Below, in pieces: positions 4,230 to 56,106 of a DNA stretch of 64,000 bases (the first letter of the stretch is position 1; the number at the start of each line of letters is the position of its first letter). The DNA is from Acidobacteriota bacterium. Its GTDB lineage: Bacteria > Acidobacteriota > Terriglobia > Acidiferrales > UBA7541. Location of the stretch: NCBI GenBank assembly GCA_003225315.1, contig QHZD01000023.1:90347-154346 (forward strand), written 5' to 3'. The position numbers were made by a program, and so were the translations under genes. The notes under the pieces were generated by a model. The model had not been told where the DNA came from. It saw only the letters and a program-made list of their open reading frames with translations, and ran no database searches.

Positions 4230-7200
4230 ATGAAGCGGCCATCAACTCTCGTGGTCCTTCTGTTGTGTGTTTTTGTCGTGTCCAGCGGGCAGAGCCTGTG
4301 TGCCCAGTTGGCCGACCGGGCTGAAATTACCGGTATCGTCACCGACGCAAGCGGTGCGGCGGTTCCCGATGCCAAGGTGTCGATCATCAACCAGGATACC
4401 GGTGCGAAAATAGTGGTGGGCACGAACAGTGCCGGAAACTACAGCACGCCCCCACTCCTCCTAGGTACCTACACTATAGAGGTCGAAAAAGAAGGCTTCA
4501 AGCATGCCACCCACCCCGGCATCATGCTGAGCGGCGCGCAGAGTTTCCGCCAGGATGTGAAGCTCGAACTCGGTTCGGTGACTCAGTCCGTCGAGGTCGA
4601 GGGTGGCGCAGCGCTGATTAACACTGAAAACTCAACGGTGTCTCACACGATTGGCGAGACCTACTATCGCGATCTTCCAGGAGTGATGGGGGCTGACATT
4701 CGTCTTGCCGAGTCCCTGCTGCAACTACAGCCGGGCTTTGTGCCCATGCAGCCGAACGGCGACGCGATTTTCCGCGGCAGCCAATTTACGTCGCGGATCA
4801 ACGGCGGCCAAACCATGGCCACGGAGAATTGGTTTGACGGCGCGGCTTTCGGCTATGCGGAAGGTCACCAAGGGACGCAGGAAAGCGCGGTGCCCTACCC
4901 CTCCGTGCAGGAAATGACAGTCGTCGAGAATACCTTTTCCGCACAGTACGGACACACTAGCGGCGGTTTTATCACCTATGCCACGAAATCCGGCACCGAC
5001 AAGCTGCATGGCAACGTCTACAATTTCTTCACCAACGATAAGCTGGACGCGGGGAACTTCTTTTTTGCCGGCATACCGACAATCCCGAATAAGAAACTGC
5101 CTTTGACCCAAGATAATTGGGGTGCTGCCGTGGGCGGGCCCGTTCCGAAGATTACCAAATGGGGCAAAACGTTCTGGTTCGTCAACGTGGACGGCCTCGA
5201 CTACCACAGCACGGTTAACACCGGTTTTGTGAACACGCTTCCGACGCCTCTCCAGAAGCAGGGCAACTTCAGCGAGTTCCTGGGAGCCCAAGCAACGGAT
5301 AAGTGTCCGGCGGGGACAGCAAATGCGGGCCTGGTTTACCCCGTCAGCGATCTTCTTGGCAATCCTATTCTTAAGGGTCAAATATACAATCCGGATCCGA
5401 CAACTTTCCAGACGGTCACAAAAACCACTGTTGACCCTTGCACGGGGAGTCCTATCACGGTGGTAAACGGTACTGTGCGCACGCCTTACGCGGGCAACAT
5501 TATCCCAGCTAATGACCCGCTGCGGAGCTCATTGGCGGCATTTATGATTCCCAACATCCCGGGGCTTGATCGCAACACATTAGCCGTTAACGGTTTTGGC
5601 GGAAGTTCGGACGATAATAACAAGATTAACGTCAGAACCTGGCTTTTCCGAATCGATCACACGTTCAACAGTAAGTTCTCCGTCAGCAACACCTACTACC
5701 AGAACAACCGGCCGCGCACCGCTCACTGCGGCGGGCCGCAGGGCTGCACCACGGTGCACAATGGACAGACGGATTCCGCGGCAAACGATACCTACATCGG
5801 CCAGGGATTCTTCCAGCGCATTACCAACCATTTCGAACACGTGCAGATGAACTGGGTGATCAAGCCGAACCTCTTCAATCACACCACACTGGCCTACGAC
5901 CGCTGGCATATGCAAGGCAACCAATTATCCGGAGGTGTAGGCTGGAATCAGAAGCTCGGACTCGGCCTGCCCAACCAAGCCATATTCAACAACGCCGGCT
6001 TTCCGTCGATTAACTTCAGTGGACCTCAAGGCTACACCGCTTACGGGACACCTTGGGCAAGCGGAGGGAGCGACATCAACAATCGCTATCAATTTCTCGA
6101 CGACATCACCTGGATTACCGGCAAGCACACGATCAAGGCCGGGCTGGAATTCCGCTATATGACTTTCCCGCAAACCGGCTGGGCCGTCAACACAGGAGGT
6201 AGTTTTAATTTCAGCGCCAACGAAACTGCCAACTACGATTTCAGAGGCGCTAACAGAAGCGATGTGAGTGGGAACGAGTTCGCCTCTCTCATATTGGGGC
6301 AAGTGAACAGTGCCAATTTCTCTGCACCGTTCAGTTATATGCCGAAGATGAGATATGGCTCTCCCTGGATCAACGACGACTTCAAGTTGACGCCCAAGCT
6401 TACGCTGACCTTGGGTATCCGCTTCGACTGGCAATCAGGGCTGTCGGAGCAGCACGGAAAGTTTTCCACATTCGATCCTACCGCTGCCAACCCTGTCGGC
6501 CATCTGGGAGCAACGGTATTCGGCGGCAGCAAGCCTATCGGGAACAGCAGTTGGAGCGTTGGTCCGCGCTTCGGCTTTGCGTATCAGATCAAGAACAAAA
6601 CCGTGATCCGCGGCGGATACGGGATGTACTATGCCGGTGCGCAGGCCGACTCGTGGGATCCTTACCCAGTGGACGGCTACCAAACCAACCCGGTGGCGCC
6701 GAATATAACCAATGGGTTATTTCCGGCGTTCTACTTCCAAGGAACCGGTAGCTGTCCGAGCGTGTATGGTCCCACCAACCCGGCTCCTTGCGGCTGGCCG
6801 ACAGGGTCCATCGTGCTCCCGCCCCAACTCAAGGCCGACGTAGCGAATGGCGGAAACCCCGTGGGCGTGGATCCCAAGACATACACGATGCCCCGCTATC
6901 AGAATTGGTCGATTTCGTTCCAGCGCCAACTGGGCCAGAACATGGCGGTCGATATAGCCTACGTGGGCAATCATGGGACGCGACTGATCGATGGCCGCAG
7001 CTCCGCCGGAGTATATGACAACATGAACCCCGGGAGTGTGCTCGCTTTGGGTAGCGTTCTCACGAACGGGCAATTCAGTAACGGTATTCCCAACCCCGCC
7101 GCGATTGCGGGGGGATTCGCGAGTCCCCCGTACCCGGGTTTCACGGGAACAGTGGCCCAGTCTTTGCGAACGTGGCCGCAGTACCGGCAGATCAATTGGC

Positions 7201-7967
7201 GCTATTTTCCAAACGGCAATAGCCACTACAACGCTCTCCAGGCTTCCTTTGACCGGCGCATGAGCCAGGGCCTGCAGCTCCGTGTTGCTTACACCTATTC
7301 CAGGCTCATGAATAACGGCTCGGAAACTGGGTTGGGAGCCGGGGGACCTCCCGTGCAGAATCCCAGCGATATGAGCGACCTATACACCGTCAGTTCCGAC
7401 GACGTGCCGCACATTTTCACTTTCGGCTGGATCTACCAGTTGCCCTTCGGCAAGAGTAAGCTGGTGGGAAGGAACGCGTCGGGGGTTTTGGACAAGCTCA
7501 TTGGCGATTGGCAAATCTCGGGGACTCAGACTTACCAATCCGGGAGACCGCTGTCCATTACCATGGCGAACAACAGCCTCGGCGGATATCTCTTTAACTA
7601 TACCGAATATCCCAATAAGGTAAGCGGCACCAAGGGATTGACCGGAAACTTCCACGACCCGAACAAGGACACTTACTTGAACTCATCAGCATGGGCCGAC
7701 CCGGGACAATTTGCCTTCGGTAATGCTCCCCGCGAGGATGCGAGCGTCCGTGGTTTTAGGTACTTTAACGAGGACTTCTCCATCTTCAAGGACACACACT
7801 TCGGCGAGGGTCGGTACGTTAGGGTCCAAGCCGACGCTGGCAACGTTCTCAACCGCGTTTTCTTTTGCCCGGTGGGCACGGCTTTAGGTAACGCCAACTT
7901 CGGGAAAACAGGCAGCCAATGCAATGTGCCGAGGCGAGTCCAGCTCGGGTTGCAAATTTTCTTCTAG
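4230..7967 (+). CDS. Acidobacterial Oar-like TonB-dependent receptor (N-terminal carboxypeptidase-regulatory-like domain)
   Basis: 1245 aa; signal peptide; ITGIVTDASGAAVPDAKV; FSAQYGHTSGG...TKSGTDKLHG plug motif; GPRFGFAY; C-terminal RRVQLGLQIFF (terminal Phe); GGAGG RBS. Confidence 0.93.
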   Translation: MKRPSTLVVLLLCVFVVSSGQSLCAQLADRAEITGIVTDASGAAVPDAKVSIINQDTGAKIVVGTNSAGNYSTPPLLLGTYTIEVEKEGFKHATHPGIMLSGAQSFRQDVKLELGSVTQSVEVEGGAALINTENSTVSHTIGETYYRDLPGVMGADIRLAESLLQLQPGFVPMQPNGDAIFRGSQFTSRINGGQTMATENWFDGAAFGYAEGHQGTQESAVPYPSVQEMTVVENTFSAQYGHTSGGFITYATKSGTDKLHGNVYNFFTNDKLDAGNFFFAGIPTIPNKKLPLTQDNWGAAVGGPVPKITKWGKTFWFVNVDGLDYHSTVNTGFVNTLPTPLQKQGNFSEFLGAQATDKCPAGTANAGLVYPVSDLLGNPILKGQIYNPDPTTFQTVTKTTVDPCTGSPITVVNGTVRTPYAGNIIPANDPLRSSLAAFMIPNIPGLDRNTLAVNGFGGSSDDNNKINVRTWLFRIDHTFNSKFSVSNTYYQNNRPRTAHCGGPQGCTTVHNGQTDSAANDTYIGQGFFQRITNHFEHVQMNWVIKPNLFNHTTLAYDRWHMQGNQLSGGVGWNQKLGLGLPNQAIFNNAGFPSINFSGPQGYTAYGTPWASGGSDINNRYQFLDDITWITGKHTIKAGLEFRYMTFPQTGWAVNTGGSFNFSANETANYDFRGANRSDVSGNEFASLILGQVNSANFSAPFSYMPKMRYGSPWINDDFKLTPKLTLTLGIRFDWQSGLSEQHGKFSTFDPTAANPVGHLGATVFGGSKPIGNSSWSVGPRFGFAYQIKNKTVIRGGYGMYYAGAQADSWDPYPVDGYQTNPVAPNITNGLFPAFYFQGTGSCPSVYGPTNPAPCGWPTGSIVLPPQLKADVANGGNPVGVDPKTYTMPRYQNWSISFQRQLGQNMAVDIAYVGNHGTRLIDGRSSAGVYDNMNPGSVLALGSVLTNGQFSNGIPNPAAIAGGFASPPYPGFTGTVAQSLRTWPQYRQINWRYFPNGNSHYNALQASFDRRMSQGLQLRVAYTYSRLMNNGSETGLGAGGPPVQNPSDMSDLYTVSSDDVPHIFTFGWIYQLPFGKSKLVGRNASGVLDKLIGDWQISGTQTYQSGRPLSITMANNSLGGYLFNYTEYPNKVSGTKGLTGNFHDPNKDTYLNSSAWADPGQFAFGNAPREDASVRGFRYFNEDFSIFKDTHFGEGRYVRVQADAGNVLNRVFFCPVGTALGNANFGKTGSQCNVPRRVQLGLQIFF

Positions 7968-7988
7968 GCTCGCCACCTGACTTAACCG

Positions 7989-8025
7989 CCGGTGGGTGGT
8001 CCGCAAAGTGCGGGCCACCTACCGG
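7989..8025. terminator. Stem-loop between convergent genes
   Basis: CCGGTGGGTGGTCCGC (7989-8004) pairs with GCGGGCCACCTACCGG (8010-8025) using two G-U pairs, 22 nt after the receptor stop. Confidence 0.65.
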
Positions 8026-48342: not shown

Positions 48343-50727
48343 CTACTCTCCGTAGGGAACCCAAATGTTTTTCACTTGGACGGAGTGGTCGAGGAACCAG
48401 CGGCCTTCGCCTTGTTTGACGTCGAACCAGTTGATGGCGCGGCCTTCATTTGTAAAAACCTGCTTCAGATTGCCGACCGAAAGAGCTTTCACCGCCGCGG
48501 CGCTGGCCTCATCCGTGAAACACCAGAGGGCGTCGACGTCATCGTGTTCCGCCAGCGTCTTCATCAGTTCCGCGGCGCGGCCAGTGACGATGTTAACCGC
48601 GCCATCCGGCAAATCGCTGGTTTCGAAAACCTGATAAAGATCGGCAGTAATCAGCGGATATTTTTCCGAAGGGATGGCGATGACCGTGTTGCCTGTCGCA
48701 ATGGCCGGCATCACGAGAGAAAGGAACCCAAGCAAGGGTGCGTCAGCGGGACAGATCACTCCTACCGTGCCAATCGGCTCCTTCATCGCCAAGGCGACGT
48801 TGCGGAACGGCGGGTTATGCACCGCGCCGTCGTACTTGTCGGCCCACGCGGCATAGGAAAAGATGCGCTCGATGCCGAGGCTGATTTCGGCCTCCGCTTG
48901 CTTCTTTCCAACCACATCGGACAAGCGGCTGGCAATTTCTTCGCCACGCTGGGAAAGATTCTCCGCAATATAGTAGAGCACCTGCGCGCGATTGTGCGCG
49001 GTTACTTTGCTCCAGCCTTCTGCTTTGCGCGCCGCTTCGACGGCGTTGCGAATGTCCTTGCGGTTTCCAAGCGGCGCTTCCCCGAGTAAGCGCCCGTCTG
49101 CACCGTGCACCGCCATGCTGTAACCCGAGTCCGGCCGCGCCTGCTTCCCGGCGATATAGAGTTTCACCGTGCGGTCGATCGGAGGAGCCGCGAAGTTTAC
49201 CCGCTGCTCGGGCGGCTGATCGATGGCTAGCGGTTTGGCGCGAAGAGGCGGCGCCTGCTTGAACCACGCGGGCTCCAGATATTCGACCAGACCTTCGCGT
49301 CCGCCTTCGCGTCCGAAGCCGCTTTCCCGATAGCCACCGAAGCCGCACGCAGCGTCGAAGAGATTCGTGCAGTTGACCCAAACGACGCCGGCTTTGAGCT
49401 GTGCCGCAACGTGCAGTGAAACATTGATGCTTTCGCTCCATACGCACGCGGCCAGTCCATACACCGTATTGTTGGCGAGTTCCACGGCTTCCTGCGGAGT
49501 GCGGAAAGTCATCGTCGCAAGTACCGGTCCGAAAATCTCCTGCTGCGCCACGACGGAAGTCGGATGAACATTGCTTAGCAATGTCGGCGGAAAATACAAG
49601 CCACGCGAAGGTACAGGAATGGACGGTTGCCAGCACGTCGCGCCCTCTGCCACACCTTGATCGACCAGTCGTTGAATGCGCTCGAGCTGTACGCGCGCGA
49701 CGATGGCGCCAATGTCGATTGCTTTATCGAGCGGTGGACCGATTCGCAGCGTGTTCATGCGGTCCTGAATCTTGCCGATCAACCTTTCCGCGATGCTCTC
49801 TTGCATCAGCAGCCGTGAACCCGCGCAGCAAACCTGTCCCTGATTGAACCAGATGCCATCGACAAGGCCTTCCACGGCGCTGTCCAGATCGGCATCCTCA
49901 AAAATGACGAAAGGAGACTTTCCGCCAAGTTCGAGCGAAAGTTTTTTGTGGCCCTGTGCCGTGACTCTGCGAATCGCGCGGCCTACTTCCGTCGAACCAG
50001 TGAACGCAATCTTGTCAACGTCGAGATGCTGCACCAGTGCTTCGCCGGTCGATCCATCGCCGGTGATGATGTTTACGACGCCAGCGGGGAGGCCGACCTC
50101 CTGGCAGATATGCGCAAAAGCGAGCGCCGTCAGGGGCGTGAACTCCGCGGGCTTCAGCACGACGGTATTCCCAGTGGCGAGCGCGGGCGCAATCTTCCAT
50201 GCCAGCATGAGTAATGGAAAATTCCACGGAATGATTTGGCCCACGACGCCGCATGCGGTGTATCCCGGAAATTCCTGTTCAAGCAACTGCGCCCAGCCCG
50301 CATGGTGATAAAAATGACGTGCGACCAGAGGAATGTCGATGTCGCGGCTTTCGCGAATCGGCTTGCCGTTGTCCAGCGTTTCGAGCACCGCGAGCCAGCG
50401 AGAATGTTTCTGTACCTGGCGGGCCAGCGCATAAAGATATCGAGCACGCGCATGAGGAGTGAGGGATTGCCATCCAGGTAAAGCAGCGCGCGCGGCTTTC
50501 ACCGCGCTATCAACATCCGCGGCCGAACCTTGTGCCACCGTCGCAAGTTTTTCACCAGTGGAAGGATCTGTGGTGTCGAAATAAGCGCCTTCAGCGGGCG
50601 CCTGCCATGTGCCGTTGATGAAGTGTCCGAAGCGCCGGCCATTGCGGTCCAGCCACGCAAGAGCTTCGCGCGGGTCCTCTGGCGCAGGGCCATACTCCAT
50701 GGTTATGAATTTTTCGACAATGCTCAT
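48343..50727 (-). CDS. ALDH16-type aldehyde dehydrogenase (complete ALDH + extra non-catalytic domain)
   Basis: ATG 50727 (MSIVEKFITMEYGPAPE); IIPWNFP; LKPAEFT; FTGSTEVG; LELGGKS; GQVCCAGSR; EIFGPV. Second Rossmann-like half (YAAWADK, GNTVI) lacks the catalytic Cys domain. ~794 aa. Confidence 0.88.
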   Translation of the reverse strand: MSIVEKFITMEYGPAPEDPREALAWLDRNGRRFGHFINGTWQAPAEGAYFDTTDPSTGEKLATVAQGSAADVDSAVKAARAALPGWQSLTPHARARYLYALARQVQKHSRWLAVLETLDNGKPIRESRDIDIPLVARHFYHHAGWAQLLEQEFPGYTACGVVGQIIPWNFPLLMLAWKIAPALATGNTVVLKPAEFTPLTALAFAHICQEVGLPAGVVNIITGDGSTGEALVQHLDVDKIAFTGSTEVGRAIRRVTAQGHKKLSLELGGKSPFVIFEDADLDSAVEGLVDGIWFNQGQVCCAGSRLLMQESIAERLIGKIQDRMNTLRIGPPLDKAIDIGAIVARVQLERIQRLVDQGVAEGATCWQPSIPVPSRGLYFPPTLLSNVHPTSVVAQQEIFGPVLATMTFRTPQEAVELANNTVYGLAACVWSESINVSLHVAAQLKAGVVWVNCTNLFDAACGFGGYRESGFGREGGREGLVEYLEPAWFKQAPPLRAKPLAIDQPPEQRVNFAAPPIDRTVKLYIAGKQARPDSGYSMAVHGADGRLLGEAPLGNRKDIRNAVEAARKAEGWSKVTAHNRAQVLYYIAENLSQRGEEIASRLSDVVGKKQAEAEISLGIERIFSYAAWADKYDGAVHNPPFRNVALAMKEPIGTVGVICPADAPLLGFLSLVMPAIATGNTVIAIPSEKYPLITADLYQVFETSDLPDGAVNIVTGRAAELMKTLAEHDDVDALWCFTDEASAAAVKALSVGNLKQVFTNEGRAINWFDVKQGEGRWFLDHSVQVKNIWVPYGE

Positions 50728-50771
50728 TCGCTTTTTCTCAGTCTCTCGCCACGAAATCAAGATTCCGAAGC

Positions 50772-51833
50772 TCACGCAATCGGATGGCGATAGTCCGCCG
50801 AATAGCGTCCCGTTACATGATGCTCCAGTTGCCGCTCGATATCGGCCAACATGCCACTCGCGCCAAACCGGAACAATTCCGCTTTTAGCCAGGAGTCGCC
50901 GAGTTCTTCTTTCATCAGCGCAAGCCACTCGAGCGATTGTTTCGCGGTACGAATGCCGCCCGCCGGCTTGAAGCCCACCGCCATTCCGGTTTCCTGCGCG
51001 TATTCGCGAATGGCGCGCGTCATAACCAAACTCACAGGCAGCGTCGCGTTCACCGCTTCTTTGCCAGTGGACGTCTTGATGAAGTCTGCTCCGGCCATCA
51101 TGGCAACGAAACTGGCGCGCGCAACGTTGCGCAGGGTCATCAAATCACCAGTGCCTAGAATCACCTTCAGATGCGCGGGTCCACAAGCGTTCTTGAACGC
51201 GGCGATCTCATCGTACAGCGCTTGCCATTTCGCGCCGAAGACGTGCGCGCGTGTAATGACCACGTCAATCTCGTCCGCGCCGGCTTCCACCGAGCGGCGA
51301 ATTTCCGCGACGCGCTCTTCAAACGGAGAAAGACCGGCGGGGAATCCCGTGGACACTGCTGCCACATGAATGCCGCTGCCTTCAATGGCGCGCCGCGCGG
51401 TTTCGACGAAGGTATGATAAACGCACACGGCTGCGACCTTGATGTCTAGACTCTCGATAGCAAGCTTCTGCACGAGTTCCTGCTGAAGCGGCTGCCGCGC
51501 CTTCGCACACAAGCGCCGCACACGCTCGTCCGTGTCGTCTCCGGAGAGCGTCGTCAAATCCATGCAGGTGATGGCGCGCAGGAGCCAAGCCGCTTGCCAT
51601 TCCTTCTTTACCGTTCGCCGCGTTCCGATGGTTTGCGCGCGGCGCTCGACGGCGCTCGTGTTCACGCGTACCGCGTTTACCCAATCTAAATTGAGCGGTA
51701 CGCCGCGGTTGGGCTGGAGATCACGCCCCGCGTAATTGGCAATGGCGGTATCGGAAGGTGAAATCGGTGCACGAAGAACGGGGCGATCCAGACTTGACGG
51801 GCTGCCGATTCGCGGATTGTCGCGCAGAGTCAT
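50772..51833 (-). CDS. deoC: Deoxyribose-phosphate aldolase (long, eukaryote-like type)
   Basis: RRTVKKEWQAAWLL; MDLTTLSGDDT; AAVCVY; STGFPAG; EIDVVI; HLKVIL; FIKTSTGK; GFKPAGGIR; RFGAS. ATG 51833 preferred over the ORF-track start. Confidence 0.93.
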   Translation of the reverse strand: MTLRDNPRIGSPSSLDRPVLRAPISPSDTAIANYAGRDLQPNRGVPLNLDWVNAVRVNTSAVERRAQTIGTRRTVKKEWQAAWLLRAITCMDLTTLSGDDTDERVRRLCAKARQPLQQELVQKLAIESLDIKVAAVCVYHTFVETARRAIEGSGIHVAAVSTGFPAGLSPFEERVAEIRRSVEAGADEIDVVITRAHVFGAKWQALYDEIAAFKNACGPAHLKVILGTGDLMTLRNVARASFVAMMAGADFIKTSTGKEAVNATLPVSLVMTRAIREYAQETGMAVGFKPAGGIRTAKQSLEWLALMKEELGDSWLKAELFRFGASGMLADIERQLEHHVTGRYSADYRHPIA

Positions 51834-51898
51834 GAGATGGTCACCACAAGTGATAAAGCAATCAGGAACCTCCATCTTAGCACTTAGACAAAGCCGGT

Positions 51899-52837
51899 TT
51901 ACAGGCGCCCTCCGCGATTCCGCCACTCCTTCTCGAATTCCTGCCGGCTGTAGAAGGATTTCTGCGTCCCTACTTTGGTTGTGGACAGAGAGGCGTAAAG
52001 ATTTGCGCGTGGCAATGCTTCCTCCTCCGACAAGCCTTTGCTCAAAAAAACCGCCAGGCTGCCAATGAAGGCGTCGCCCGCGCCGGTAGTGTCCACGGCT
52101 TGGACCTGGAATGCCGGAATGAGCTCCATGCGATCCGCTCCTGCTGCCAAGCAACCGCGCTCGCCAAGAGTAATGACCACGCGCTGCATTCCCTGGCGCA
52201 GAAGAAACTCGGCGCACTTTTTTGCATCGTCGATCGAGTGAACTGGTATTCCCGTAATGACTTCAGCTTCGCTCTCATTGGGGATGAAATAATCTGCGGT
52301 GCCTACTTGCTTGAAGTCAACCGGCTGTGCCGGAGCGGGATTCACGATACAGCGAATCCCGTTGGCCTTCGCGAACTTCACGGTGTGATAGACGGTTCGC
52401 AGCGGGACCTCAAACTGCAGGATGATGGCGTGCGCCTTGCGGAGCAGCGGCGCGGCAGCGTCCACGTCTTCTGGCGAAAGCGTGTCGTTCGCGCCCTTCA
52501 CGACGATGATGCGATTTTGGCCGCTCGGATCCACGAAGATTGGAGCGACCCCGCTGGAGACGCCTTCGGCGATGCGCACGTACGTCGCGTCAATCCCTAG
52601 CGATTCAAAGTTTTTAATCGTGGCTGGGCCGAAAAGGTCACTCCCGACTTTCGCTACCATTCCTACGTTCGCGCCGCAGAGACGTGCCGCAACCGCCTGA
52701 TTCGCGCCTTTGCCGCCGAACCCAAGATCGAACTTCTTGCCGAAGATGGTTTCTCCCGGCCGCGGGAAGACGTCATTGAACGTTGTAAGGTCCACGTTTG
52801 CGCTGCCCACCACCGCAATCAAAGGTCGCTCGGTCAT
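51899..52837 (-). CDS. rbsK: Ribokinase/deoxyribokinase
   Basis: GSANVD; GGKGANQAVAA; SSGVAPIFV; KGAN; NPAPA; IPNESE; VTLGERG; DTTGAGDAFIG. Confidence 0.9.
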   Translation of the reverse strand: MTERPLIAVVGSANVDLTTFNDVFPRPGETIFGKKFDLGFGGKGANQAVAARLCGANVGMVAKVGSDLFGPATIKNFESLGIDATYVRIAEGVSSGVAPIFVDPSGQNRIIVVKGANDTLSPEDVDAAAPLLRKAHAIILQFEVPLRTVYHTVKFAKANGIRCIVNPAPAQPVDFKQVGTADYFIPNESEAEVITGIPVHSIDDAKKCAEFLLRQGMQRVVITLGERGCLAAGADRMELIPAFQVQAVDTTGAGDAFIGSLAVFLSKGLSEEEALPRANLYASLSTTKVGTQKSFYSRQEFEKEWRNRGGRL

Positions 52838-52886: not shown

Positions 52887-53816
52887 CTATCCAGTGAAAA
52901 CGTTGCGCACTATGAACCATAAATTCGCCGGCCGTTCCGCAAGCCTCCGCACAAACCACGGATACCAGTAGCTGCCGTAAGCGACTAGCACAATGGAAGT
53001 GCAGCCCTCGCTGGCGAGGCGTTCCTGCTCGGCGCCCTGGATGCCGTAGAGCATTTGCACCTCAAATTCCTTTTTTGCGAAGCCTTCCTCGGATGCGCAA
53101 TTGGCCAGCCGCCGGATCAGCGTCACATCATGTGTGCCGAAAGCGGCGCGCATACAACGATTTTCCTTCTTGGCTCGCAGCATCTGCCTTCCAAGTTGGA
53201 AATAGTTTTTGTCGACGTCCTGTTTGCGCGGGAACGCGATTGTTGGCGGCTCGTTGTATGCGCCTTTCACCAAACGTATCGAAGGCCGCAGTGGAAGAAG
53301 TGTCCCCAGGTCATCCTTCGTCCGATACAGGTAGGCTTGCAGGCAGATGCCGACATTGGGATGCGCCATCAGTGCGCGGCGATAGAGATCCAGTGTCGAG
53401 TCCACATAGTTACTGGCCTCCATGTCCACCCAGACGATGGAGTCTTTTGCCGCCCGCTCGATAATGGCGTTCAAATGCTCGAAGCAGAGATCCGCCGAGA
53501 GATCCAGCCCGAGTTGCGTCAATTTGACGGATATCTCTGCTTGCAGACTTTTTTCTCTGATACGCTTCAATACTTCGAGATAATGTTCAGCAACCTGCTG
53601 CGCCTCCCCGCGGTCTTTGATATTTTCTCCGAGGTGCGTGAATACCGTCCCAATCCTATTGCTTCGCAGCGTCTCCGCCGCTCCAAGCGCGTCGTCCAGC
53701 GTTTCTCCGGGCATAAACCGCAACACTGTGCCGCGTACAAAGGAGTATTGCGTGGCATGATCACGGAGCCATCGATTCTGCGAGGCAGCCAGCAACAGGG
53801 AACGCATCAAACCCAT
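52887..53816 (-). CDS. putB: Monofunctional proline dehydrogenase
   Basis: RFMPGETLDDA; HLGEN; ISVKLTQLGL; VWVDME; GICLQAYL; RLVKGAYNE; FGTHD; FEVQMLYGI; YGSYWYPWFVRRLAERPAN. Confidence 0.9.
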   Translation of the reverse strand: MGLMRSLLLAASQNRWLRDHATQYSFVRGTVLRFMPGETLDDALGAAETLRSNRIGTVFTHLGENIKDRGEAQQVAEHYLEVLKRIREKSLQAEISVKLTQLGLDLSADLCFEHLNAIIERAAKDSIVWVDMEASNYVDSTLDLYRRALMAHPNVGICLQAYLYRTKDDLGTLLPLRPSIRLVKGAYNEPPTIAFPRKQDVDKNYFQLGRQMLRAKKENRCMRAAFGTHDVTLIRRLANCASEEGFAKKEFEVQMLYGIQGAEQERLASEGCTSIVLVAYGSYWYPWFVRRLAERPANLWFIVRNVFTG

Positions 53817-53856
53817 CCTCTTCTCCACTCCTGTTTAACCGAAGATTTCGCTTACT

Positions 53857-54594
53857 TCAGGAAATTGCGAGCAGCCGCAGAAGCACACCGGCCAGCACGC
53901 CGCCGACGAGCGGTCCAACCACGGGAATCGGCGCATAGCCCCAATCCGAGCCGCCTTTCCCCGCAATCGGTAGAATGGCGTGCACGATGCGCGGCCCGAG
54001 GTCTCGTGCCGGGTTGATAGCGTATCCGGTGGTAGCTCCAAGAGACAGACCGATGCCCCAGACCAGGCTTCCTACGAGATACGGGCCGAGACCCGCTGCA
54101 GGACCAGACGCAGAAACGCTCTTTGAGAAAATCGCGCCAACCACGAAAACAAGCACGAAGGTTCCAATGACTTCGCTCAGCAAATTCGCCACAGTATTGC
54201 GAATCGCCGGTGCCGTGCAAAAGCATGCTAGCTTCGCAGCAGCATCCGGCGTTTCTTTCCAGTGCGGAAAGTAGTGCAGCCACACGAGCGCTGCCCCCAC
54301 GATTGCTCCAAGCACTTGCGCTGCAATGTAGGAAGCAAGCTTGGCAAAACTGCCGTCCCGCATCGCGAAGCCGATCGTCACCGCGGGATTCAGATGCGCA
54401 TCGTTGCTCCCACAGGCAATTGCCGTGAACACGCCCGCCATCACCGCGAACGCCCAGCCGGCGGTGATCACCATCCAGCCGCTCCCTTCCGCTTTCGATC
54501 GCTTGAGCAGCACGGCCGCGACAACTCCATCGCCGAGCAGTATGAGAATCATCGTGCCGAAAAATTCACCAGCCAGCGGTGAGGTCATAAGCAA
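53857..54594 (-). CDS. glpF: Aquaglyceroporin / glycerol uptake facilitator
   Basis: GEFFGT; HLNPAVT; GYAINPARDLGPR (the NPARD GlpF signature). Confidence 0.9.
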   Translation of the reverse strand: MLMTSPLAGEFFGTMILILLGDGVVAAVLLKRSKAEGSGWMVITAGWAFAVMAGVFTAIACGSNDAHLNPAVTIGFAMRDGSFAKLASYIAAQVLGAIVGAALVWLHYFPHWKETPDAAAKLACFCTAPAIRNTVANLLSEVIGTFVLVFVVGAIFSKSVSASGPAAGLGPYLVGSLVWGIGLSLGATTGYAINPARDLGPRIVHAILPIAGKGGSDWGYAPIPVVGPLVGGVLAGVLLRLLAIS

Positions 54595-54603
54595 GCGCCT
54601 CCA

Positions 54604-56106
54604 TCAGGATTCCATCCAGTCAAAGGATCGTGTGACTGCTTTCTTCCATTGCTTATGCAATTGCTCACGTTCCGTTTCGGCAAGATGCGGCTTCCAGGTG
54701 CGATCGACGGCCCAATTGGCTCGCAACTCCTCCAGGCCGGAAAAGAATTTCACAGCCAAGCCGGCAGCATAAGCCGCGCCCAGCGCCGTCGTCTCTTGAA
54801 TCACCGGTCGCACGACTTCACGGTTCAAAATATCCGCCTGAAATTGCATCAACAAATCGTTAGCAACCATGCCCCCATCCACGCGAAGACTGGCGAGGCT
54901 GATATGCGAATCTTTCTCCATCGCCTCGACCACTTCCCGCGTCTGAAATGCCGTGGCCTCCAGCACGGAGCGGGCGATGTGCCCTTTGTTTGCGTAGCGT
55001 GTCAAGCCGGCAACCACGCCGCGCGCATTCTCCTTCCAATAGGGCGCGTACAACCCGGAAAACGCTGGAACGAAGTAGACGCCGCCATTATCATTAACGG
55101 TTCGCGCCAGCGCCTCGACGTCGGAACTCTTCTCAATCATTCCTAGATTGTCGCGAAGCCACTGCACCAGCGCCCCGGCAATCGCAACGCCGCCTTCCAG
55201 TGCGTAGTTTGCAGCCCCATCGCCTAATTTGTACGCGACCGTAGTGAGCAGGCCAAAACTCGAGGGTACCATCCGCTCCCCGGTGTTCATCAGCAGAAAG
55301 CAACCTGTGCCATATGTGTTTTTGACTTCGCCCGGGCGAAAGCACGCTTGGCCGACCAGCGCCGCTTGTTGATCGCCCAGGATTCCAGTGACAGGAACTC
55401 CCCCGATCGCTTTGAGAGTTGCTTCCCCATAGACTTCGCTGCTCGAACGCACCTTCGGCAGTACCGCACGCGGAATGTCAAACGCCGCGAGCAACTTTTC
55501 GTCCCAATCCAGTGTTAACAAATTCAGGAGTTGCGTTCGACTCGCGTTGGTCACGTCTGTCACGTGCACGCCGCCTTGTGGGCCTCCTGTTAAGTTCCAG
55601 AGGAGAAACGTATCGATATTTCCGAACAGCAACTCGCCCGCGGTTGCCTTTTCCCGCGCCTCCGGAACATTTTCGAGCAGCCAGCGCAACTTCAAACTGC
55701 TGAAGTACGTGCTCAGCGGCAATCCCGTCTGGGGCCGGAAACGGTCTTGTCCGCCGTTGCTGGCAAAGCGCCCGACATCTTCCGTAACCCGCGTGTCCTG
55801 CCAAACAATCGCATTGGCAACCGGCTTGCCGGTTTTGCGCTCCCACAGGACCGTGGTTTCCCGCTGATTGGTGATTCCGATCGCGGCCAAATCCGCAGCG
55901 CGCAACCCTCTCTGCTCCAGGGCCGAGGCAATCACTTCTTCCGTGCGCCGCTGAATTTCCAGCGGATCGTGCTCCACCCAGCCCGGCTTCGAAAAGATCT
56001 GTTCGTGCTCTTTTTGCGCCACGGCCGCGATACGCGCCGACTGATCAAAAACCATGAATCGCGTGCTGGTCGTGCCTTGGTCGATTGCTCCAATGTAGTT
56101 TTTCAC
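54604..56106 (-). CDS. glpK: Glycerol kinase
   Basis: IDQGTTSTR; PGWVEHDP; GITNQRET; AIVWQDTR; DVTNASRT; GDQQAAL; KNTYGTGCF; YALEG; [11 protein letters not shown]; LRVDGGM; ETTALGAA. Confidence 0.95.

Follow-up and report, generated by a model that had tools for sequence, protein, structure and literature searches.

The window analysed here, a 64,000-nucleotide stretch of contig QHZD01000023.1 from a soil bacterium of the Acidobacteriota, carries a gene for a long-form deoxyribose-5-phosphate aldolase (DeoC, or DERA) directly upstream of a gene for an aldehyde dehydrogenase (ALDH) of the ALDH16 family. We found that long DeoC and ALDH16 form a near-obligate partnership, and this finding rests on their co-occurrence, their adjacency, their fusion into single chains, a split form of the module, and a fusion that carries a dead dehydrogenase. 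We consider it likely that DeoC cleaves deoxyribose-5-phosphate and that the acetaldehyde is then oxidised by ALDH16, the two proteins probably forming a complex. The window pair is an ordinary example of a widespread module, which appears to be undescribed in the literature searched; no link of ALDH16 to DeoC or to deoxyribose was found in that literature, which did not include the primary ALDH16 structure paper.

The DeoC–ALDH16 pair in the window

The two genes and the spacer between them are laid out as follows.

50772–51833, minus strand: long-form DeoC, 353 residues (TIGR00126; PF01791)
50728–50771, minus strand: 44-nt spacer with the purine-rich stretch GAGAGACTGAGAAAAAG ahead of the ALDH16 ATG (direct reading)
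49228–50727, minus strand: ALDH16 catalytic part, residues 1–500, with ALDH1/2-like NAD-binding and catalytic domains (PF00171; alignment to 6MVR)
48343–49227, minus strand: ALDH16 C-terminal non-catalytic pseudo-Rossmann domain, residues 501–794, and the stop codon (alignment to 6MVR)

The deoC stop codon (TGA, 50772–50774) is followed by the 44 nt of the spacer and then by the ALDH16 ATG at 50727; an in-frame ATG at 51875, 14 codons upstream, is an alternative deoC start. The first-pass annotation had described a deoC gene 44 nt upstream of a two-domain ALDH that retains the catalytic Cys and Glu, and this description is confirmed, the two residues being Cys300 and Glu266. The assembly is 97.6% complete in 57 contigs, and there is one DeoC and one ALDH16 in the whole genome.

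DeoC matches PF01791 in Pfam and scores 166.3 bits against TIGR00126 (deoC, EC 4.1.2.4), above the equivalog cut-off of 117.3. Its residues Cys137, Asp190, Lys223, Lys253, Lys289, and Tyr348 align with Cys47, Asp102, Lys137, Lys167, Lys201, and Tyr259 of E. coli DERA, so that Lys253 corresponds by alignment to the Schiff-base Lys167. With every catalytic residue of the E. coli enzyme in place, DeoC is expected to catalyse the same reaction. The protein also has an N-terminal extension with a conserved core at about residues 45–85, and the segment RRTVKKEWQAAWLL forms residues 72–85. In alignments with E. coli-type DeoCs the match starts no earlier than about residue 85 of the window protein. 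A bird protein has a DERA part that is 54% identical to the window DeoC over 309 residues from residue 47, a match that begins inside the N-terminal extension. In a quick maximum-likelihood tree, which is indicative only, animal DERAs cluster with the window type (Shimodaira–Hasegawa approximate likelihood-ratio test, SH-aLRT, 93), E. coli-type DeoC is a separate clade, and the outgroup is formed by DeoC of the short type. The earlier label of this DeoC as eukaryote-like thus holds, with the extension included. Long-type DeoC is also found fused to phosphopentomutase-like metalloenzyme or phosphoglucomutase/phosphomannomutase domains (P0277, P0294, P0295).

The ALDH16 protein (794 residues) aligns over residues 1–793 with the ALDH16 of Loktanella (6MVR; E 1e-289), and PF00171 matches residues 41–486 (E 8.5e-198). 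The structures that follow 6MVR in the search, those of ALDH1A2, ALDH2, and betaine-aldehyde dehydrogenases, cover just residues 35–486 or so. Asn169, Glu266, Cys300, and Phe463 align with Asn165, Glu261, Cys295, and Phe453 of 6MVR, the first three catalytic and the last the neck residue (PMC12041015); a Phe neck is a feature shared with ALDH1/2. Because the alignment spans residues 1–793 and the Asn, Glu, Cys, and Phe are kept, we read the protein as a full and catalytically competent ALDH16. By its sequence it is a member of ALDH16 (CDD cd07111) in the active bacterial subgroup, with competence predicted. The same four residues are present in all 88 ALDH16 open reading frames examined in the loci described below, the P0276 lineage apart. 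The nearest families of the catalytic domain include the acetaldehyde dehydrogenase ExaC and ALDH2.

The C-terminal domain of about 290 residues aligns with residues 493–766 or so of 6MVR and shares about 30% identity with the N-terminal half of ALDHs. According to two recent reviews of the ALDH superfamily (PMC8160307 and PMC12041015), this domain imitates the partner subunit found in classical ALDH dimers and builds the ALDH16 dimer. A trans-hierarchical pseudo-dimer fold and a homodimer of its own type are characters of the ALDH16 family. Among animals, the ALDH16A1 proteins of Limulus, platypus, a tick, a cichlid, and a thrips match the window protein over its full length, at about residues 6–794, with 34–38% identity, and the catalytic triad is missing in all six animal representatives examined.

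Co-occurrence of long DeoC and ALDH16

Three whole-genome samples were searched, with DeoC as one query and the C-terminal domain of ALDH16 as the other.

Acidobacteriota: 301 genomes; ALDH16 C-terminal domain in 19, long DeoC in 19, both in 19
Alphaproteobacteria: 201 genomes; ALDH16 C-terminal domain in 15, long DeoC in 15, both in 15
Chloroflexota: 151 genomes; ALDH16 C-terminal domain in 53, long DeoC in 56, both in 52
Total: 653 genomes; ALDH16 C-terminal domain in 87, long DeoC in 90, both in 86

Neither gene occurs without the other in 648 of the 653 genomes, and the DeoC feature that tracks the presence of ALDH16 is the N-terminal extension. In the Acidobacteriota, where long DeoC was taken at E ≤ 1e-72 and identity of at least 46%, the long DeoC and the C-terminal domain lie on one contig and strand in 18 of the 19 genomes, and the remaining 154 genomes with DeoC carry only the short type, which is at most 37% identical; the best DeoC match after the long ones has 33% identity. 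The two genes adjoin in all 15 alphaproteobacterial genomes; a further 23 have an E. coli-type DeoC alone and lack ALDH16. The five genomes with one partner only are all Chloroflexota, and in each the partner lies on a high-numbered contig, which suggests fragmented assemblies. Six other Chloroflexota genomes (G553, G604, G649, G565, G631, and G536) have both genes on different contigs, and in four (G580, G598, G607, and G616) they are 7–9 kb apart. Since both genes are kept when they lie on separate contigs or about 7 kb apart, the co-occurrence outlasts adjacency.

Three individual matches deserve a separate mention. One alphaproteobacterial C-terminal domain (G460:C3:2433311–2433802) matches query residues 7–168 only, has an internal TGA, and adjoins an intact long DeoC; this ALDH16 is possibly decaying. 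A C-terminal-domain match of 68% identity (G642:C139) sits in a bin named for another phylum, and a locus titled Betaproteobacteria bacterium (L028) has DeoC and ALDH16 that are 82–89% identical to those of the acidobacterial window. Both are probably mis-binned contigs.

Conserved adjacency

A pattern scan of 185,579 species genomes, built on an alignment of the C-terminal domain, gave 80 loci, which belong to Acidobacteriota, Gemmatimonadota, Chloroflexota, Alpha- and Betaproteobacteria, Myxococcota, Verrucomicrobiota, SAR324, and Limnochordales. Of these, 69 were informative because 1.1 kb or more of sequence was available upstream. Conserved gene linkage had been set beforehand as the test of the pairing, and it was found: a co-directional DeoC (60–87% identity) lies within 600 nt upstream of ALDH16 in 64 of the 69 loci and in at least eight phyla, alongside the 86 genomes with both genes. 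Inserted genes of 2.3–4.8 kb separate the two in three further loci, and no DeoC was found nearby in the other two. In most pairs the two genes are separate and lie 10–200 nt apart.

Split and single-chain forms

The module occurs in three architectures: the window form (DeoC, then the fused ALDH16), a split form, and a single chain. In the split form, an ALDH of about 500 residues comes after DeoC, and the C-terminal domain, of about 292 residues, has a separate gene whose ATG overlaps the ALDH stop codon. An example is L020, with DeoC at 4679–5605, the ALDH at 5626–7131, and the C-terminal domain at 7128–8006; the same order is seen in L018, L019, and L021–L025, and the form is present in three acidobacterial families and many Chloroflexota. 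Its DeoC and C-terminal domain diverge most from those of the window, at 44–52% and 36–40% identity.

The single-chain proteins join DeoC, ALDH, and the C-terminal domain in 1082–1184 residues (P0124, P0273, P0274, P0275, P0290, and P0276). Several are encoded on independent contigs, among them one of 225 kb and a 1.3-Mb Rhodospirillales contig that carries P0275. The linkers differ by lineage, and in a quick tree (indicative only) P0276 falls with Ktedonobacteraceae by its DeoC part, so the fusion arose at least twice. The P0276 lineage has lost about 30 residues where the C-terminal domain begins; its nearest protein relatives, from Ktedonobacteria, are about 53% identical, and a metagenome scan for P0276 returned distant ALDHs only.

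Two other candidate fusions were rejected. P0293 is an artefact of frameshifted, arginine-rich junk. The DeoC–ALDH protein P0279, labelled 'Artemia', was not accepted as an animal fusion; it is 61% identical to the window ALDH16 and is therefore probably a bacterial contaminant.

Structure prediction of natural fusions

We folded P0274 and P0290 with AlphaFold2 as single chains, using an alignment of the six fusions with 35 DeoC and 35 ALDH16 sequences, the window pair included. The P0274 model has a mean predicted local distance difference test score (pLDDT) of 91.4 and a predicted template modelling score (pTM) of 0.90, and its linker is structured. The ALDH16 part superimposes on 6MVS to 1.7 Å over 749 residues (Z 55). 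The corresponding scores for P0290 are 88.2 and 0.88. DeoC makes up about 30% of each folded chain, and we estimate that a freely placed DeoC would limit the pTM to about 0.7. Set against that estimate, the two modelled values would imply a defined arrangement of DeoC and ALDH16.

Neighbouring genes

Around the pair, a PfkB kinase is next to DeoC and ALDH16 in 18 of 96 loci from several phyla, a pyrimidine-nucleoside phosphorylase occurs in 16 loci, and a CNT nucleoside transporter and an inosine-uridine nucleoside hydrolase occur in 12 loci each. Judged by their predicted products, these recurrent neighbours are genes of deoxynucleoside and deoxyribose catabolism. The order DeoC–ALDH16–PfkB is seen in Burkholderia and Paraburkholderia loci (L068, L079, and L091), and the kinase/aldolase pathway is known to matter for deoxyribose growth in these genera (PMC6365646). 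No aldehyde dehydrogenase is discussed in the text or supplements of that deoxyribose fitness study. In two acidobacterial genomes a second, ordinary ALDH lies directly downstream of ALDH16 (L010:9087–10493 and L011:8769–10175) and is 46% identical to its catalytic part.

The remaining genes around the pair in the window are these.

54604–56106, minus strand: glycerol kinase, glpK (window gene calls)
53857–54594, minus strand: MIP channel, glpF (window gene calls)
52887–53828, minus strand: stand-alone proline dehydrogenase (window gene calls)
51899–52837, minus strand: PfkB/ribokinase-family sugar kinase (PF00294; TIGR02152 ribokinase, 342 bits, cut-off 299.65)
Next after the ALDH16 gene: secreted alpha-galactosidase-like gene

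The six genes from glpK to ALDH16 share the minus strand with short gaps between them. A promoter and terminator scan of the locus found sites no more frequent than in shuffled sequence, so the transcription unit is drawn from spacing only. The kinase is probably a (deoxy)ribose kinase that supplies DeoC. The complete order glpK–glpF–proline dehydrogenase–kinase–deoC–ALDH16 is kept only in two close relatives (L026 and L057), and we rejected glpK, glpF, and the proline dehydrogenase as parts of the module, as their conservation is confined to those two loci.

Proposed function

We propose the following sequence of events. The ribokinase-family kinase, or elsewhere a phosphorylase and mutase, would supply 2-deoxyribose-5-phosphate, which the long-form DeoC would split into glyceraldehyde-3-phosphate and acetaldehyde. 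ALDH16 would then turn the acetaldehyde irreversibly into acetate with NAD(P)+, and this oxidation would both pull the aldol equilibrium and clear a toxic product that inactivates the aldolase. At equilibrium the DERA reaction lies on the side of synthesis, and the enzyme is inactivated by acetaldehyde and by the products of its condensation. A dehydrogenase that works irreversibly close by would therefore be expected to pull and protect the aldolase. We infer that acetaldehyde is the ALDH16 substrate and that the two proteins associate physically; most likely they act as a complex.

Several observations weigh against this proposal. The counts of 86 genomes with both genes and 648 of 653 in agreement include three unpublished genomes (G024, G345, and G650) and come from related genomes, which are not independent samples. 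The high pTM values are predictions on fused chains, from an alignment with only six fused rows. The Loktanella enzyme, the one ALDH16 that has been characterised, is reported to act on medium-chain aldehydes such as hexanal (PMC12041015). Finally, in the three full-length members of the P0276 lineage (P0276, P0314, and P0316) the catalytic triad is replaced, the positions reading Glu-Asn-Val-Arg, and the DeoC catalytic residues are intact; a dead ALDH beside an intact DeoC means that ALDH16 may serve DeoC in some way other than by oxidising its product.

Alternative explanations

The leading alternative is that DeoC and ALDH16 are neighbours in a pathway and nothing more, sharing a freely diffusing pool of acetaldehyde with no stable complex or channel, and that they occur together as a co-transferred two-gene cassette. 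We regard this as a possible explanation, if an unlikely one. It accommodates the separate genes and their spacers of 10–200 nt, as well as the several Chloroflexota genomes in which the genes are unlinked, and DeoC and ALDH16 covary across loci in how similar they are to the window pair (r 0.93 for identity), as expected of a co-inherited cassette. A cassette alone, however, fails to explain the joint presence or absence in 648 of 653 genomes, unlinked genomes included, nor does it explain the repeated fusions, the fusion with a dead ALDH, or the compact bodies modelled by AlphaFold2.

The first-pass annotation had placed the contact on the extra domain, proposing that the non-catalytic C-terminal domain of ALDH16 docks DeoC and gives acetaldehyde a protected path. 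Physical association as such is plausible, given the fusions in at least two lineages and the pTM values of 0.90 and 0.88, but the docking role of this domain is not supported, and we think it improbable. The domain does occur only with long DeoC, even as a separate gene, and the fusions and pTM favour docking at some surface. Yet a structural role is already assigned to it, that of a pseudo-partner subunit and a dimer interface (PMC8160307, PMC12041015), and the DeoC N-terminal extension and an ALDH16-specific N-terminal arm at the fusion linker are equally good candidates for the dock.

Could ALDH16 instead be mainly a non-catalytic scaffold or regulator of DeoC, with dehydrogenase activity secondary and the scaffold role kept by animal ALDH16A1? 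The P0276 lineage, which joins an intact DeoC to an ALDH16 without the Asn, Glu, and Cys, can be read in this way, and so can the animal proteins, in which the triad is absent from six of six ALDH16A1 representatives and DERA is of the same long type. We consider it very unlikely, as the full triad in all 88 other bacterial ALDH16 sequences indicates that catalysis is under selection, and P0276 stands as a single isolated lineage, with short metagenome contigs as its only source.

It is just as unlikely that ALDH16 acts on another aldehyde of the pathway, such as glyceraldehyde-3-phosphate, open-chain deoxyribose-5-phosphate, or aldol side products like crotonaldehyde. DERA does make longer aldol products from acetaldehyde, which would favour such a substrate. 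So would the preference for hydrophobic aldehydes of medium chain length that is reported for the Loktanella enzyme (PMC12041015), but the ALDH16 pocket resembles that of ALDH1/2 and has an aromatic box and Phe neck where an arginine-lined site is expected for a phosphorylated substrate, and the nearest catalytic-domain families, ExaC and ALDH2 among them, include acetaldehyde dehydrogenase.

Significance and a possible extension to animals

ALDH16 has been an orphan family, with a bacterial structure that lacks a physiological role and a human member, ALDH16A1, that is tied to gout without a mechanism. The near-obligate partnership with long DERA assigns the family to the breakdown of deoxynucleosides, a part of purine-related metabolism, and gives it a testable function. 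The coupling also has practical relevance, since DERA serves as an industrial biocatalyst and inactivation by acetaldehyde limits its use.

A tentative and rather doubtful extension of the proposed DeoC–ALDH16 complex is that long-form DERA and ALDH16 are an obligate pair from bacteria to animals. Binding, through the DeoC N-terminal extension, the extra domain of ALDH16, or both, would then have outlived the death of the catalytic site, and human ALDH16A1 would be a DERA partner, with its link to gout and uric acid running through deoxynucleoside and purine catabolism. A human DERA–ALDH16A1 interaction, mentioned as reported in the first-pass annotation, was not found in the papers or supplements searched. 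There the two proteins are named together only in gene or protein lists, and the BioPlex 3.0 preprint supplement has abundance rows only.

Comparison with known systems

The closest characterised protein is the ALDH16 of Loktanella sp. (6MVR, 6MVS, 6MVT, and 6MVU; Liu and Tanner 2019), which has the same two-part architecture, triad, and Phe neck as the window protein. In PMC8160307 and PMC12041015 it stands without a link to DeoC or a pathway context. In its family (Rhodobacteraceae/Roseobacteraceae) we found DeoC directly upstream of ALDH16 in five loci (L065, L072, L094, L098, and L105).

Animal ALDH16A1 shares the architecture of the window ALDH16 over its full length and differs in the missing triad. 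It is a pseudoenzyme with a gout-associated variant, P527R, and with maspardin and HPRT1 as reported partners. Animal DERA is of the long form, like the window DeoC, N-terminal extension included, and it is the bacterial gene that is operonic with ALDH16. E. coli DeoC (a class I aldolase; 1JCL and 5EKY) has the fold family and catalytic residues of the window protein, whereas the E. coli type lacks the N-terminal extension of about 40–80 residues and never occurs with ALDH16 in the sampled genomes.

Coupling of an acetaldehyde-releasing aldolase to a consuming dehydrogenase through a protein tunnel is established for DmpFG, BphIJ, and MhpEF. The logic is like that proposed for DeoC and ALDH16, but the folds and chemistry are unrelated: those systems pair a metal-dependent pyruvate aldolase with a CoA-acylating, GAPDH-like dehydrogenase. 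DeoC–ALDH16 would add a second, structurally unrelated aldolase–dehydrogenase coupling for acetaldehyde. A further parallel is found in PutA of types B and C, where a similar non-catalytic, Rossmann-like C-terminal domain replaces the partner subunit and the enzyme channels its intermediate. PutA differs in its partner reaction, and a single chain is the rule there, whereas fusion is the exception for DeoC and ALDH16.

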